Source: Vicinamibacterales bacterium (GTDB lineage: Bacteria > Acidobacteriota > Vicinamibacteria > Vicinamibacterales > UBA2999). From it: 64,000 nt of DNA. How positions within the stretch are numbered: position 1 is the stretch's first letter; each line of letters starts with the position of its first letter. The stretch is from assembly GCA_030680175.1 (NCBI GenBank), contig JAUXWO010000064.1, forward strand, positions 71,949 to 135,948, in the 5' to 3' direction. Positions 36,111 through 64,000 of this stretch are shown one piece after another. The notes below the pieces were generated by a model. That model did not search any database. It worked only from the letters and a program-made list of their open reading frames with translations, and was not told where the DNA came from. The position numbers were made by a program, and so were the translations under genes.

Positions 36111-36163
36111 GGGGCCCTCGCTTCCGCCCGGCCGGGGCTCAGAAGCGAGACGCTATCACAGAC

Positions 36164-36227
36164 GGGGTGCCGGGGTGCCGAAGTGCCGAAGTGCCGGGGT
36201 GCTGCAGTGCCGGGGTGCCGGGGTGCC
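36164..36227 (+). repeat. Tandem 8-bp array (RRRGTGCC) x8
   Basis: ggggtgcc ggggtgcc gaagtgcc gaagtgcc ggggtgct gcagtgcc ggggtgcc ggggtgcc, in the spacer between two minus-strand genes. Confidence 0.9.
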
Positions 36228-36232
36228 GCAGG

Positions 36233-37000
36233 CTAGAAGAGCTGGCGGCCTTCCTCGCGGAGCCAGCGCCGGGCCGGCTGGTAGTCGGGGCAGACCGCCG
36301 CGACCAGGCGCCAGAAGCGCGACGAGTGGTTCAGCTCGCGCAGGTGCATCAGCTCGTGCAGCAGCACATAATCACGCACGAACGGGGGCACCTGGAGGAG
36401 CCGCCAGTTGAGCGTGATGCTGGCGCGCCGCGAGCAGGCGCCCCAGCGCGACTGCTGGTCGCGGATGGAGATGCGCGCGACCGTCAGCCCATGGACCTCG
36501 GCCAGCGCGAGCAGGGCCGGCGGCAACTCGCGGCGCGCCCGTATCCGCAGCCACCGCGTGACGTGGGGCGCCAGGTCCGCCCGATCGAACACGCCCCGCA
36601 CGGGCACCCGCGTCTCGCCGCACCACAGGCGGGGCCCGTCCTCATGCGCCTCGATCCGCAGCACCTGCGGCACGCCATCCAGCAGCACCGTGGTGCCCTC
36701 GCGCCACCGTCGATCCACGGCGGCCGCCGCCTCGCGCGCGGCGCGCTGTCGCGACACCCACTCGTGACTCTCCTCGACGAAGCGGCGCGCGTCGCGCTGG
36801 CTCCCCCATCGCGGCACCGTCACGCGCAAGGTGCCATCGGGCAATACGCGCAGGATGTAACGGCGCGCACGGCGATGGCGGACGAAGACAAGGGCAGGTG
36901 GCGCCGGCGGCGTGGAAGACGTGGGCGCGGGCGCCGGAGGCGCGGCGGTCTGAGGCGCAACAGCCGCAGGCGCGTCATGAAAGGGCAACCCCGGCTGCAT
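36233..37000 (-). CDS. YgjP/SprT-like (DUF45, M48-type) metal-dependent hydrolase
   Basis: C-terminal YVLLHELMHLRELNHSSRFWRLV contains HExxH in the DUF45 context. Confidence 0.8.
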   Translation of the reverse strand: MQPGLPFHDAPAAVAPQTAAPPAPAPTSSTPPAPPALVFVRHRRARRYILRVLPDGTLRVTVPRWGSQRDARRFVEESHEWVSRQRAAREAAAAVDRRWREGTTVLLDGVPQVLRIEAHEDGPRLWCGETRVPVRGVFDRADLAPHVTRWLRIRARRELPPALLALAEVHGLTVARISIRDQQSRWGACSRRASITLNWRLLQVPPFVRDYVLLHELMHLRELNHSSRFWRLVAAVCPDYQPARRWLREEGRQLF

Positions 37001-37019
37001 CGTCGGTAGGATACTACCT

Positions 37020-37110
37020 GGGTGGTGGGTAGTGGGTCGTGGGTCGTGGGTCGTGGGTCGTGGGTCGTGGGTCGTGGGTGGTGGGTCGTGGGTGGTGGGT
37101 GGTGGGTCGC
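37020..37110 (+). repeat. Tandem 7-bp array (GGGTNGT) x13, G-quadruplex-capable
   Basis: gggtggt gggtagt (gggtcgt)x6 gggtggt gggtcgt gggtggt gggtggt gggtcgc; followed by two copies of gctgaYagccga; lies in the divergent spacer between the YgjP-like gene and guaB. Confidence 0.92.
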
Positions 37111-58270: not shown

Positions 58271-58513
58271 ATGCCCAAGACAAAAGTTGCCCTGACGATC
58301 GACGCCGATCTGCTCGAGCGTGTGGACCACCTCGTGGCCCGGCAGCGCTTTCGCAATCGCAGCCAGGCGATTGAGACGGCGCTCGCCGAGAAGCTGTCAC
58401 GACTGGCCCGCGTCCGCCTGGCCGAGGAGTGTGCCAAGCTCGACCCCGCGGAGGAACGGCTCCTGGCCGATGAAGGCCTCGCGGCCGCGGATGAATCATG
58501 GCCCGAATACTGA
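58271..58513 (+). CDS. mazE: RHH-type antitoxin paired with MazF
   Basis: MPKTKVALTIDADLLERVDHLVARQRFRNRSQAIETALAEKL; 16-nt overlap with mazF; TGgTATGAT extended -10 at 58246-58254. Confidence 0.7.
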   Translation: MPKTKVALTIDADLLERVDHLVARQRFRNRSQAIETALAEKLSRLARVRLAEECAKLDPAEERLLADEGLAAADESWPEY

Positions 58514-58833
58514 GGGGTGAGATCCGGTGGGCCGATCTCAATCCCGTCCGCGGTCACGAGCAGGCCGGACAACGCCCGGTACTGATTCTGAGCCACGACG
58601 TGTTCAACGAACGGTCCGGCACCGTGATCGCCGTCGCCCTGACCAGTCAGGAGCCGCGCGCGGGCTATCCGCTCACGCTCGCACTGACTGACGCCAGGCT
58701 CCCCAAGCCCTCCTGGGCGAAGATCAGCCAAATCCGCACGCTCTCGACCGAACGCCTCGGCAAGAGACTCGGTCGTGCCTCGGACGAGGAGCTGACCAGG
58801 GTGCTGGACGGCCTCATGGAGATCGTCGGCTAG
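58498..58833 (+). CDS. mazF: MazF/PemK-family endoribonuclease toxin
   Basis: RGEIRWADLNPVRGHEQAGQRPVLILSHDVFNERSGTVIAVALTSQ. Confidence 0.88.
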   Translation: MARILRGEIRWADLNPVRGHEQAGQRPVLILSHDVFNERSGTVIAVALTSQEPRAGYPLTLALTDARLPKPSWAKISQIRTLSTERLGKRLGRASDEELTRVLDGLMEIVG

Positions 58834-60545: not shown

Positions 60546-61445
60546 TCAGGCCCGCACCGTCAACACGGGGCACGGCGCCTCACGGACGATGTGGTGCGTC
60601 GTCGATCCGAAGAGCGTGAGGTCGACGGCCCCGCGGCCGAGCACGCCCAGCACGATCAGGTCGGCTGCCCGCTCTCGCGCGACGCGCAGGATCTGGCGCC
60701 ACGGCTTCCCTTCCGTCACCAGGATCTCGGGCTTGCACCACTCGCGGGCCGGCACCGGCACCGCCTCCCCCAGCAGCCGCTCGGCCTCGGCCGTCCGCGA
60801 CTCGGTGTACGCCGTCAGCATCACGCCGTGCGTGCCCGCCGCCCACGTCTCGGCCGCCCAGTCGACGACGTGCATCAGCACCAGTTCGGCGTCGCTCTCC
60901 TGCGCCACCGACATCGCATACTCGAGCGCGCGCAGCGATGCGTCGGAGAAGTCCACCGCGCAGAGGATGGTCTTCGGCAATTCGATCGCCTCCGGCGGCC
61001 CCTGCGCCCCCGGGGGCACGGTGAGCACGGGACACGTCGCGCGCCGCAGCACCTTCTCGGCCACCGACCCGAGCACGAGCCGCTGCACGCCCGACCGGCC
61101 ATGCGTGCCGAGCACGATCAGATCCGGGGCGTACTGCTCCGCCTCGAGCAGCAGCTGCTCCACGATGTACCCGCCGTGGACCCGGGTCTCGACCGGCACG
61201 CCCGCGCCCAGCACCGGGGCCACGAACGCCTCGAGCGCCACCACGTGCGCGTTCTGCTGATCCGGCGTCAGCGCAAACTCCGCAGGCGCGGGCGGATAGT
61301 CCACGCTCGGAAGGCCAATCGGCACGACCTCGACGACGCGGAGGGCGGCCTCGTAGCGCTTCGCGAGGACGGCCGCGTACTCGAGCGCGCGCCGGGAGAT
61401 CTCGGAGTGATCAACGGGACAAAGAATGCGGTCGATGCGGATCAT
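60546..61445 (-). CDS. Tandem universal stress protein (two UspA domains)
   Basis: Trimmed to ATG 61445; [36 protein letters not shown] and a second copy [36 protein letters not shown]. Confidence 0.88.
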
Positions 61446-61587
61446 GGCTGATCCTTTCCCCCCACGCATGTGGGGTCAGGCAGCGTCCGGCGACGCCTGC
61501 GGGCTGTGGGGACCTCAACGCACGCCGGCGCGCGCGGCCTTCTCCCACATCATACCGGCGCAGGGGCTACAATGCGCCAGGATACGA

Positions 61588-61810
61588 GGGTGCTCAGGGT
61601 GCTCAGGGTGCCCAGGGTGCTCAGGGTGCTCAAGGTGCCCAGGGTGCTCAGGGTGCTCAAGGTGCCCAGGGTGCTCAGGGTGCTCAGGGTGCTCAGGGTG
61701 CCCAAGGTGCCCAGGGTGCTCAGGGTGCTCAAGGTGCCCAGGGTGCCCAGAGTGCCCAGAGTGCCCAGAGTGCTCAGGGTGCTCAAGGTGCTCAAGGTGC
61801 CCAGGGTGCG
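61588..61810 (+). repeat. Tandem 9-bp array (RRGTGCYCA) x~24
   Basis: gggtgctca/gggtgccca/aggtgccca/gagtgccca units read directly; lies in the divergent spacer between the USP gene and the peptidase gene. Confidence 0.95.
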
Positions 61811-61839
61811 GGGACGTGGTTCAGCGTGAGGGTCATCGG

Positions 61840-63108
61840 GTGAATAGCTCGTCGGGTGCAACACAGCGGTCGTGGCGAGGGATCGGTCTCGCGCTGCTCA
61901 GTCTCTGCGGTCTCGCGGCGGGTCCTGCATCCGCTCAGCAGGCGCTGCCGCTGGCCCTCGCCGATCCGGCCGTGGCCGGGGCGTTGGCTGACATCGATGC
62001 GCGGCGCGACCAGATCGCGGGCTGGCTGGCCCGCATCGGCGGCATCATCTCGCCCTCGGGCCAGGAGCAGGCGCGCGCCGAGGCCGTGGCCGCGGAGATG
62101 CGGCGCATCGGCCTCAGCGACGTGGTGGTCGATGCGTCGCCGAATGCGGTCGGCGTGATCCCCGGACGCTCGGGCAAGGCCCTCGTCTTCGTCTCCACCC
62201 TCGACGACCTCGCCACGGTCGCCGAACACCAGCGCGCCGCCGCCGCCCCGCCCCGCATCGAGGGCGACCGTGTCGTCGGGCCCGGCACGAACACGTCGCT
62301 GACGACCGCCGCGATGATCGCCGCGGCCGAGGCGCTCATCACGCGGGGCATCCAGCCGGAACACGATCTGGTCTTCGCGGCCGTGGCGCAGGAGGAGACC
62401 GGCCTCAAGGGGATGGCCGCCCTCTACGCGCGCTACCGGGAACGCGCCATCGCGTTCGTCGACATCCTCGGCGACGGATCGAGCATCAGCTACGGCGCCA
62501 TCACCATCCACTGGTGGCGCGTCGTCGCCAACGGCCCCGCCGGGCACTCGCTCGGCGGCGGCCTGCCCAACGTCAACCAGGGCATCGGCCGCGCCGTGGA
62601 CCGCATCCTCCAGCTGCCGCATCCCACCCTCCACGCGGATACGCGGACCATCATCAACGTGGCGATGCTGCAGAGCGGGGCCGTGTTCAACCACAAGCCG
62701 GACGCCGGCTGGTTCTCGCTCGACATCCGGTCGCTCGATGGCACACACGTCGACGCCGTCGAGACCGAGGTGCGGGCGCTGCTCGCGCGCGTCACCGAGG
62801 AGACCGGCATCCGCTTCACGATGGAGCCCGTGCAGCTCACGCCGGGCGGACAGCTCCCCGGCTTCGACCGCGCCCCGATCGTCGTCACGTCCGTGGCCAT
62901 CGCGAAGCACCTCGGGGTCGAAGGCCGGCTCGGGAACGCCGGCTCGTCGAACATGAACGTGGCGCTCGGCCAGGGGACGCCCGCGATTGGACTGGGCGGC
63001 AGCCGCGGTGGACAACGCGGGTTCCCCGACGAATGGGCCGATATCCCGGCGATGCTGCGGACGGCCAAGCATGTCGTGCTGCTGGCGGCAACGATAGGGC
63101 GACGATGA
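61840..63108 (+). CDS. Secreted M20/M28-type metallopeptidase-family protein
   Basis: Trimmed to GTG 61840 (GAGGG 8 nt upstream; GTG 61816 is also possible); signal peptide [23 protein letters not shown]; …[17 protein letters not shown]…. The upstream Cys-rich part of the listed ORF is the repeat array. Confidence 0.75.
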
Positions 63109-63122
63109 TGACGAGTGTCGAT

Positions 63123-64000
63123 ATGCGTGTGACGGCAAGAACCCTCGTCGGCGCACTGGCTCTGGTGCTGCTCACCGCGCCCATGACGTCCGGGCACCTT
63201 GGGCACCCCGGGCACCCTGAGCACCTCGAGCACCCCGAGCACCTCGAGCACCCTGAGCACCCCGGGCACCCTGAGCACCCCGGGCACCTCGTGCACCCTG
63301 GGCACCTTGAGCACCTCGAGCACCCTGGCTCCAATCAGCCAGCCCACTTCGATCTGCTGATCCGCGGCGGACGCGTGCTCGATGGCAGCGGCAACCCGTG
63401 GCAGCGGCTCGACATCGGCATCACGGGCGACCGGATCCGCGCGGTCGGGCGGCTCGACCAGGCGACGGCGTCGCGGACCATCGATGCCTCAGGGCTCTAT
63501 GTGACGCCCGGGTTCATCGACGTCCACTCACACGCCGGCCCCGGGCTGCTCGCCGACCTCCGGCACGCCGAGCCGCTGCTCGCGCAGGGCATCACGACGG
63601 CGCTCGTCAATCCTGACGGGGGCGGCCCCGTGGCGCTTGCCGGCCAGCGCGCGGCCTACGAGAAGTTCGGCACGGGCGTGAACGTCGGCCTCTTCGTCCC
63701 CCACGGATCCGTCCGCGCGGCGGTGATGGGGATGTCCGACGCGGATCCCGATTCCGAGGCGCTCGCCAAGATGGTCGACCTCGTCAACGACGGCATGAAG
63801 GCCGGCGCCGTCGGGCTGTCGAGCGGGCTCTACTACGCGCCCGGCAGCTACTCGAAGACGGACGAGGTCGTGGCGATGGCGCGGATCGCCGCGCAGTACG
63901 GCGGCGTCTACTCCAGCCACATCCGCGACGAAGGCGACTACTCCGTCGGCGTGATCGCCGCCGTGCAGGAAGTCATCGACATCGCGGAGCAGGCCGGGAT
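63123..64000 (+). CDS. N-acyl-D-amino-acid deacylase (D-aminoacylase) family amidohydrolase, 5' part, with signal peptide and His-rich repeat linker
   Basis: Not in ORF track (no stop before the window end). MRVTARTLVGALALVLLTAPMTS + (GH[LP]/EH[LP]) x15 + FDLLIRGGRVLDGSGNPWQRLDIGITGDRIRAVG…GFIDVHSH…YSSHIRDEGD. ATG 63105 or 63108 are alternative starts. Confidence 0.85.
   Translation, partial: MRVTARTLVGALALVLLTAPMTSGHLGHPGHPEHLEHPEHLEHPEHPGHPEHPGHLVHPGHLEHLEHPGSNQPAHFDLLIRGGRVLDGSGNPWQRLDIGITGDRIRAVGRLDQATASRTIDASGLYVTPGFIDVHSHAGPGLLADLRHAEPLLAQGITTALVNPDGGGPVALAGQRAAYEKFGTGVNVGLFVPHGSVRAAVMGMSDADPDSEALAKMVDLVNDGMKAGAVGLSSGLYYAPGSYSKTDEVVAMARIAAQYGGVYSSHIRDEGDYSVGVIAAVQEVIDIAEQAG
63192..63326 (+). 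repeat. Tandem 9-bp array x15, inverted relative to 61588..61810, inside a coding region
   Basis: gggcacctt gggcacccc gggcaccct gagcacctc …; the unit is the reverse complement of the left-array unit (TGAGCACCC versus GGGTGCTCA). Confidence 0.95.

Follow-up and report, generated by a model that had tools for sequence, protein, structure and literature searches.

Invertible switches such as fimS, hin and the Bacteroides invertons consist of short exact inverted repeats with a dedicated site-specific recombinase nearby, and their two orientations coexist. The contingency loci of Neisseria, Haemophilus and Campylobacter carry phase-variable short tandem repeats, and histidine-rich metal-binding tails occur in accessory factors of metalloproteins (HypB, UreE, Hpn and SlyD). 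The repetitive extragenic palindromes (REP), bacterial interspersed mosaic elements (BIME) and REP doublet-forming hairpins (REPIN) of Proteobacteria are GC-rich palindromic intergenic hairpins located by gene ends, whose doublets form longer hairpins and for which roles in mRNA stabilisation, termination and supercoiling have been proposed (PMC3733652, PMC3184786). The intervening sequences (IVS) of 23S rRNA hold an S23p/four-helix-bundle open reading frame (ORF) in the loop of an inverted-repeat stem that is cut by RNase III (PMC4990558). In fungal and algal mitochondria, palindromes made of short motifs are optional between close species and have been proposed to be sites of processing or recombination (PMC7218506, PMC4524435). 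Here we describe a pair of inverted 9-bp tandem arrays located around an M20-family peptidase gene and the start of the following N-acyl-D-amino-acid deacylase gene in a Vicinamibacterales bacterium, close to the end of a 64,000-nt stretch of contig JAUXWO010000064.1 (positions 71,949 to 135,948; the whole analysed stretch is called the window), and we compare it with these systems.

The two arrays were delimited with Tandem Repeats Finder. The left array (61587-61809) has a period of 9, 24.8 copies, 89% matches and the consensus AGGGTGCTC, and the right array (63190-63327) gave periods of 9, 18 and 27, about 14-15 nonamers and 79-85% matches. An initial annotation of this DNA had described two inverted 9-bp arrays bracketing the peptidase gene together with the ATG and signal peptide of the deacylase. 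Both statements hold: the arrays (24.8 and ~15 units) are reverse complements, as the alignment of the arms also shows, and the content of the bracketed segment is as claimed. The reading that we favour, and to which we give as a whole a little less than an even chance, is that each array is one arm of a split imperfect palindrome whose 9-bp unit has the core GGTGC/GCACC, that this palindrome belongs to a class of elements recurrent in soil bacteria, and that it has a role as an RNA stem. Its structural and evolutionary part is probable; the RNA-stem mechanism, which is a model, is put forward only tentatively. The features of the locus are the following.

61587-61809, plus strand: left arm, non-coding and G-rich on the plus strand, with 24.8 units that are GGGTGCTCA or variants of it
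63190-63327, plus strand: right arm, ~15 units of GRGCACCYN, C-rich on the plus strand, in-frame coding
60546-61445, minus strand: universal stress protein (USP) gene with tandem Usp domains (Pfam Usp, E=2.9e-64; ORF list)
61566-61574, plus strand: GCTACAATG, with a putative -10 element (TACAAT at 61568-61573), 13 nt upstream of the left array
61828-61832, plus strand: GAGGG, likely the peptidase ribosome-binding site, with 7 nt between it and the GTG at 61840, as judged from the sequence
61840-63108 (GTG to TGA), plus strand: M20-family peptidase/deacylase gene (Pfam Peptidase_M20 and M20_dimer), with a signal-peptide-like N-terminus
63105-63194, plus strand: deacylase start (ATG at 63105) and signal-peptide-like N-terminus, the inner flank of the right arm
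63330-64000, plus strand: catalytic domain of the N-acyl-D-amino-acid deacylase (Amidohydro_3; Pfam and NCBIfam), continuing past the end of the window

The left and right arrays gave ungapped pairings of 108-142 nt with 78-87% complementarity in many registers. The best one extended over 139 nt at 86%, and 97% was reached over one 35-nt stretch. The longest exact inverted match between the arms is 24 nt, so that the expression "near-identical", by which the repeats had been described, is overstated. Apart from one weak 33-nt pair, the arms are the sole inverted repeat of at least 30 nt within 3 kb across the 64-kb window, and the array pair is therefore far beyond chance. The predicted duplex of the two arms has an energy of -272 kcal/mol, as compared to -126 kcal/mol for shuffled arms. 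A search of the window against Rfam 15 gave no match at the gathering score, and the compact hairpins of the same class, described below, gave only sub-threshold look-alikes of microRNA hairpins. A reading of the left arm as a G-quadruplex was discarded: it contains 3 overlapping motif matches, which is not distinctive when the window's two strands contain 16 and 14.

The two arms differ in their relation to protein coding. The right arm translates in frame and without stops as (His-Pro/Leu-Glu/Gly)x15, and therefore constitutes a 45-residue His-Pro/Leu-Glu/Gly linker in the deacylase reading frame, inserted after the signal peptide and ahead of the first conserved strand, FDLLIRGG. The insert region is covered by none of the best 120 deacylase homologues retrieved from 5.8 billion proteins, all of which pass directly from the signal peptide to the catalytic domain. 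The identity of the enzyme is indicated by the name N-acyl-D-amino-acid deacylase that homologues carry in both JGI and NCBI records; only one homologue is more than 80% identical. Of the 15 Pro/Leu codons of the right arm, 8 end in C, consistent with the neighbouring genes, whose GC content at third codon positions is ~0.9. In the minus-strand His-Pro-Glu frame of the left arm, all 25 Pro/Leu/Ser codons end in T (0/25 in C). The right arm thus bears a coding imprint at codon third positions and the left arm does not. In fact, the minus-strand frame of the left arm has upstream TGA stops, which are present at 61835-61833 and 61823-61821 as the initial annotation had indicated, and no start codon; no homologue support was obtained for the plus-strand frames through the left array.

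The putative -10 element precedes the left arm and the peptidase ribosome-binding site follows it, which puts this arm in the leader region of the peptidase and deacylase genes. The nonamer GCTACAATG is present also in two related loci, L002 (17 nt before the peptidase ATG) and L064 (16 nt before the left array), and we infer from this sequence that it may be a -10 element, which would place the left array at the extreme 5' end of the mRNA. The USP gene is divergent from the peptidase gene and its start faces the left array. At the other end, the deacylase ATG at 63105 overlaps the peptidase stop as ATGA. A consensus terminator scan returned nothing; the hairpins are without T-tracts and are therefore not canonical intrinsic terminators.

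The peptidase gene is located in the "loop" between the arms, and 62 loci homologous to it were found. The peptidase places the organism, which occurs in SRR13727517, in or near the Vicinamibacterales (Acidobacteriota). In the comparison with related genomes, which the initial annotation had proposed as a check on an invertible segment, the arms are inverted likewise in L064; L002 has neither arm and its genes are intact. L064 is a 15-kb JGI contig that carries the closest deacylase in the protein database (87% by BLASTP; 85% identity over the first ~223 residues of the catalytic domain). Along this contig, the minus-strand USP gene is followed by GCTACAATG and by 11 units of G-arm; ~20 nt further on come the ATG and signal peptide, then 13.8 units of C-arm and lastly the catalytic domain. 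The inverted arm pair is thus conserved around the deacylase start in a second lineage. No peptidase is present between the arms of L064, where the spacer is 125 nt as compared to 1.4 kb in the window, and the whole 366-nt element is predicted to fold as a single stem with an energy of -277 kcal/mol. The signal-peptide region of the window deacylase is orthologous to that of L064 (local alignment p<0.0005). With regard to the loss of the peptidase in L064, the leader of the window peptidase and that of the L064 deacylase showed no significant homology. A rare unit variant, CACTCT, is common to the left arm of the window and to both arms of L064.

L002 is syntenic with the window, with the USP gene on the minus strand followed by the peptidase and deacylase genes on the plus strand (78%, 86% and 86% identical, respectively). 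It has neither array, and its right-hand site keeps 1.5 units, GCACCTGAGCACC. The USP orthologue adjoins the left arm in L064 and an array-free spacer in L002. The window, L002 and L064 are about equidistant from one another; this would mean that L002 has lost the two arms, or else that they arose twice at the same two sites. A more distant homologue in a differing context (L193, protein P0031) has ~5 units of TTGGCACCT, translated as Leu-Ala-Pro within the deacylase signal peptide, and in L005 8 units of GGCACCCCT start at the peptidase stop codon. Since these solitary arrays are of the C type, the C arm looks older than the G arm. In L193 (3960-4010), the Leu-Ala-Pro repeats make up the hydrophobic core of the signal peptide.

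A change in unit number had been put forward as a second mechanism of variation. It is supported indirectly by the 24.8 and 15 units of the window vs. 11 and 13.8 in L064, and by one-unit differences in the hairpins of another site, considered below. The identity of the same arm across lineages (87%) equals that between the two arms within the window (86%), a comparison for concerted evolution that is confounded by the indels of L064. In ~1.03 Mb, comprising the window and the genome loci L002-L064, arrays were found only in the window, L005, L009, L050 and L064. As to the origin of these sequences, we observed that the records of L002, L004 and L009 are titled "uncultured Bifidobacteriaceae bacterium" or "Clostridia" despite close Vicinamibacterales-type peptidase homologues, which looks like mislabelled third-party annotation (TPA) taxonomy.

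The distribution of such arrays was analyzed by scanning JGI metagenome contigs for four consecutive units, with a detection that is strand-symmetric, and at least 120 loci were obtained. Low-GC matches were set aside as long coding repeats, and the class counts refer to loci with a GC content of at least 0.6. Among the matches listed, both array orientations occur close together in 18 of 68 such loci: 16 of these have the G-arm first and the C-arm second, a single pair runs the other way and another is ambiguous (binomial p about 1e-4). This polarity is real, because the detection was strand-symmetric, and the order seen at the 16 metagenome loci listed is also that of the window pair and of L064. 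Twelve of the pairs listed form compact hairpins, in which a loop of ~10-55 nt separates arms of 3-11 units, and their predicted folding energies range from -67 to -135 kcal/mol. They directly adjoin stop or start codons. In L122, L135 and L097 the mirror symmetry reaches the order of the unit variants, and in L122 it extends into the flanks. Four of the listed pairs are widely spaced, and three of these enclose a gene of the TIGR02436 four-helix-bundle family (S23p/Avd-like), outside rRNA.

L103, 398-1290: arrays around a TIGR02436 gene
L121, 892-1521: arrays around a TIGR02436 gene
L131, 1179-1730: arrays around a TIGR02436 gene

In L121, the C-terminus of the four-helix-bundle protein runs into the C arm, which is translated. 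Single arrays also occur, upstream of or inside unrelated genes, and the nonamer family is translated variously as His-Pro-Glu, Gly-Ala-Gln or Leu-Ala-Pro in different proteins. One such case is L181 (1300-1421), in which (Gly-Ala-Gln)n is contained in a minus-strand ORF that appears M28 peptidase-like from a reading of its translation. The architecture therefore recurs among soil contigs of high GC content, including one assigned to Gemmatimonadaceae, and the claim of a class rests on about 25 loci.

One of the compact hairpins allowed orthologous sites to be compared.

L145, 996-1095: hairpin in the pgsA-cinA spacer of a member of the Gemmatimonadaceae, upstream of grpE-dnaJ

Orthologous pgsA-cinA spacers were taken from five further lineages, in which CinA is 84-91% identical. 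Every spacer compared contains a tandem-repeat hairpin of ~100 nt with the purine/G-rich arm first, whose end coincides with the cinA ATG or lies no more than about 25 nt from it; the spacer of L185 is cut by the contig end, so that only its C arm is visible. The unit is GAGGTGCTC in L145, GGGGTCCTC in L187 and L188, AAGGCGCTA in L190-L192, CAGCGCCTC in L185 and the 7-mer GAGGAAY in L186. Since the hairpin structure is kept through a complete turnover of the unit, we take the stem to be what is selected. Between contigs with identical CinA, the unit count of a single arm differs by exactly one (L187 vs. L188 and L190 vs. L191), which is direct evidence for slippage polymorphism.

As regards the unit itself, the G arm (GAGGTG) is Shine-Dalgarno-like, and the cinA-locus units of L185 and L186 carry GGAGG/CCTCC-type cores. 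The C-arm unit GAGCACCTC (window 63221-63229; L122 71-102) matches in 8 of 9 positions the 3' end of 16S rRNA, GATCACCTC, which is the anti-Shine-Dalgarno region, and also in 8 of 9 positions the half-site of the controlling inverted repeat of chaperone expression (CIRCE). Either match may be a coincidence.

Within the split-palindrome reading, the window element is best seen as a class member whose loop is exceptionally large and whose C arm falls within a gene. Its arrays would grow and shrink by replication slippage, the 9-bp unit keeping the frame when an arm is genic, and the complementarity of the arms would be maintained because the stem matters. In a transcript starting near 61580, the first ~220 nt would be able to pair with deacylase codons ~30-75, giving a stem of ~135 bp at the base of a 1.4-kb loop in which the peptidase ORF and the deacylase start are contained. 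This stem would be open to a double-strand RNase or would block ribosomes, and in this way it would set the deacylase output relative to that of the peptidase; slippage would alter the stem length and the linker length jointly. A wider interpretation, which is conceivable but which we regard as doubtful, is that high-GC soil bacteria (Gemmatimonadaceae and Vicinamibacterales-like among them) carry polar tandem-repeat palindromes of a class not described before, in which the stem and not the sequence is selected, the arms evolve in concert and vary in length through slippage, and the elements serve as modules of RNA processing or translation control with possible gene cargo, be it a four-helix-bundle ORF or, in the window, a complete gene and the translation start of the following one. 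The window would then be the first case of an arm also recruited as protein-coding sequence.

Several observations weigh against the reading that we favour. L002 manages without the arms and with its genes intact, which indicates that the arms are dispensable, and only two array-bearing lineages of this locus were found. The left arm is predicted to fold on itself (-139 kcal/mol), which competes with the long-range pairing, and ribosomes on the peptidase ORF could disrupt the long-range stem. The complementarity of the window arms (78-87%) is far below that of the compact hairpins. The T-to-C third-position changes of the right arm produce A-C mismatches in the sense RNA, and therefore coding pressure seems to outweigh pairing here. 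A strict consensus sigma-70 scan gave no full promoter, and the putative promoter is proposed from the conserved 9-mer. The right arm of L064 (4459-4500) contains one 11-nt and one 8-nt unit, with a net +1 shift that separates the signal peptide from the catalytic domain, and the public gene call P0001 starts after the repeat; the frameshift is either that of a real pseudogene or an assembly error of the homopolymer type. Finally, counts of G-U vs. A-C mismatches showed no consistent strand bias in 14 hairpins or in 7 orthologous cinA hairpins, and hence do not separate an RNA-level from a DNA-level role, nor do they point to the active strand.

The initial annotation had interpreted the locus as a potential invertible segment. 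In such a model, homologous recombination between the arrays would reversibly flip 61810-63189, detaching the deacylase domain from its start and signal peptide and the peptidase from its leader, and would produce phase variation. We consider this improbable. The geometry fits, and the predicted consequence of a flip is right, as the catalytic domain would lose its start and signal peptide and the replacing frame has stops and no start codon. The arms can be placed in many registers with perfect matches of 14-24 nt, in addition to the 35-nt stretch at 97%, assemblies break within the arms, and the gene content between the arms differs by lineage, the peptidase being present in the window and absent in L064. 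However, the window and L064 both show the ORF-continuous orientation, which is the sole one observed and which matches the synteny of L002, L019, L014 and L053; the one contig from the same sample, a Logan contig coding for an identical peptidase protein (L001), ends inside both arrays and is orientation-neutral. In homeologous recombination, divergence and short perfect identity make RecA-dependent exchange inefficient, and the arms have 13-22% divergence and a maximum perfect match of 24 nt. No recombinase was found in the 14 kb upstream, and the gene calls of the 15-kb L064 contig include none either: the Pfam scan of the genes from 47 to 61.5 kb of the window returned ABC-F, IspG, a GAF histidine kinase, a LuxR regulator, adenylate kinase, MazF, FHA and Usp, with no recombinase. 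Moreover, most elements of the same class have loops of ~10-55 nt, where flipping has no effect, and a 9-bp unit gives no frameshift switching. The recurrence of G-then-C hairpins with short loops at unrelated loci therefore indicates a structural repeat-element class and not a dedicated inversion switch, and inversion of DNA between the arms is possible as a rare side reaction and not as a designed function. An inverted duplication had also been argued from a relatedness of the inner flanks in inverted orientation. This relatedness was no better than that of shuffled sequences (2000 shuffles; p=0.65 for the window and p=0.56 for L064), so that the flank evidence for such a duplication is not significant.

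A different possibility, unlikely in our judgement although it is the foremost rival, is that the arms pair without any selected function. The C-array would be an old, slippage-prone microsatellite, which does no harm or brings a slight benefit as a flexible His-rich linker, perhaps by capturing metal for the zinc hydrolase, the left array would be a harmless ectopic inverted copy of it or a template-switch product, and both would persist only through the self-renewing dynamics of tandem repeats. This would agree with the solitary C-type arrays found at this position in L193 and L005, with the intact genes of L002, and with a nonamer family that is read in several frames in different proteins and stands singly upstream of unrelated genes; the complementarity of the window arms is also eroded by coding-type substitutions, and the window has other G-rich arrays, of 7 and 8 bp, without partners. 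Hard to explain neutrally, however, are the 16:1 polarity of the pairs among the matches listed, the near-perfect mirror symmetry of the compact hairpins and the persistence of the pgsA-cinA hairpin through complete unit turnover. Against it is also that both arms of the present locus were kept in two lineages whose flanking proteins are only 79-85% identical. We see very little chance that the arrays are instead iteron-like sites to which an oligomerising DNA-binding protein attaches, as it would at an operator or a centromere, placed head-to-head around regulated starts. The regular 9-bp spacing, the symmetric G-then-C layout around a centre, the location of arrays at promoters and gene starts, and the resemblance of the unit to the CIRCE half-site GAGTGCTAA in 8 of 9 positions would suit such sites, but the units differ within one genome (9, 8 and 7 bp in the window) and at orthologous sites of related genomes, against one sequence-specific binder; furthermore, the order of the CIRCE half-sites is opposite and their spacer is a fixed N9, and here one arm is inside a coding region. 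It is equally hard to believe that the two arrays expanded independently from unrelated seeds, their complementarity being a coincidence of a favoured motif. In L002 a 1.5-unit seed is present at the right site only, the inner flanks have no significant inverted homology, and no arm register is clearly best, all of which an independent origin would account for. On the other hand, L064 has the same inverted pair at the same two sites, the CACTCT variant is shared by the left arm of the window and both arms of L064, and 16 further loci, among the matches listed, have the same polar pairing.

Other features were noted in the window outside the locus. At 37019-37109 there are 13 units of GTGGGTC, G-rich on the plus strand, directly upstream of the start of a YgjP-like metallopeptidase gene (36233-37000, minus strand) and also just upstream of an IMP dehydrogenase gene; directly downstream of the stop of the YgjP-like gene, at 36163-36231, there are 8 units of CGGGGTGC, again G-rich on the plus strand. 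Neither of these two arrays has an inverted partner. The motif AGGATAC precedes both the GTGGGTC array and the main left array. A MazF/PemK-type toxin gene is located at 58498-58833, ~3 kb upstream of the locus, and the short ORF that precedes it may code for an antitoxin.

If the class is real and functional, it represents a new type of cis-acting structured repeat in two abundant and poorly studied soil phyla. As it is defined by architecture and polarity and not by sequence, motif-based repeat finders and Rfam would miss it. In the window, one microsatellite is at the same time a non-coding leader element and, on the opposite strand 1.4 kb away, an in-frame protein linker. The arrays also have practical consequences: they break short-read assemblies, as shown by L001, which ends in both arms, and by the many metagenome matches at contig ends, and they mislead gene callers, as in L064, whose deacylase is called without its signal peptide and repeat.

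The ingredients of this element, namely microsatellites, palindromic extragenic repeats and stem-flanked ORFs, are known. Their combination was not found in the literature or in Rfam: polar inverted arrays of short units, conserved in place and not in sequence, sometimes enclosing a gene, with one arm that can double as coding sequence. For the bacterial chromosome, no counterpart of such elements was found in the literature, whose coverage was incomplete, so that this is absence of evidence only; the palindromes of fungal and algal mitochondria are organellar and differ in composition. The CIRCE/HrcA operator (TTAGCACTC-N9-GAGTGCTAA) was considered as a relative and rejected, since here the G type comes first and whole arrays are separated by spacers of 10-1400 nt.

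As in invertons, inverted repeats flank a segment that contains a gene start, and a flip would switch expression off; unlike in invertons, the repeats of the window are long and degenerate, there is no recombinase in the 14 kb upstream and one orientation was seen. Contingency loci share with the window the presence of short tandem repeats in a leader and at the 5' end of a gene, with a copy number that varies between relatives. The 9-bp unit, however, is divisible by three and keeps the frame, so that copy changes alter the length of the linker or the stem with no on/off switching, and the two arrays of the window are inverted partners. The linker resembles the tails of HypB, UreE, Hpn and SlyD in its dense histidines with acidic residues and in its zinc-hydrolase context, and it might bind metal. 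It differs from them in its strict tripeptide period, which derives from a DNA microsatellite, in its position right after a signal peptide and in its absence from close homologues.

Like REP sequences, the elements of this class are recurrent GC-rich palindromic hairpins beside gene ends. Whereas a REP is a unique palindrome of 20-40 bp, each arm is here a tandem array of 3-25 nonamers (30-220 bp), the unit sequence is not constant from locus to locus, nor even at orthologous sites, a GTAG/CGTC tag is absent, and coding sequence can make up one of the arms. REP sequences are present in many copies per genome, as compared to about one pair in 64 kb and five array loci in about 1 Mb. The REP-associated RAYT (IS200/IS605-like) transposase was not seen in the window, and no whole genome was searched for it.

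The comparison with the IVS of 23S rRNA concerns both architecture and gene content. The elements described here are not in rRNA, their arms are tandem arrays of 40-150 nt vs. a unique stem of 28 bp, and the loop of the window holds an M20 peptidase and the start of the next gene, with no S23p ORF. In both, long inverted repeats can form a stem around an ORF, as predicted for the window duplex (-272 kcal/mol) and for the single stem of L064, and L103, L121 and L131 carry between their arms a protein of the same family (TIGR02436/PF05635) as the IVS. Through this link with the S23p/Avd-like four-helix bundle, the biology of rRNA intervening sequences, which is still unexplained, becomes open to testing.

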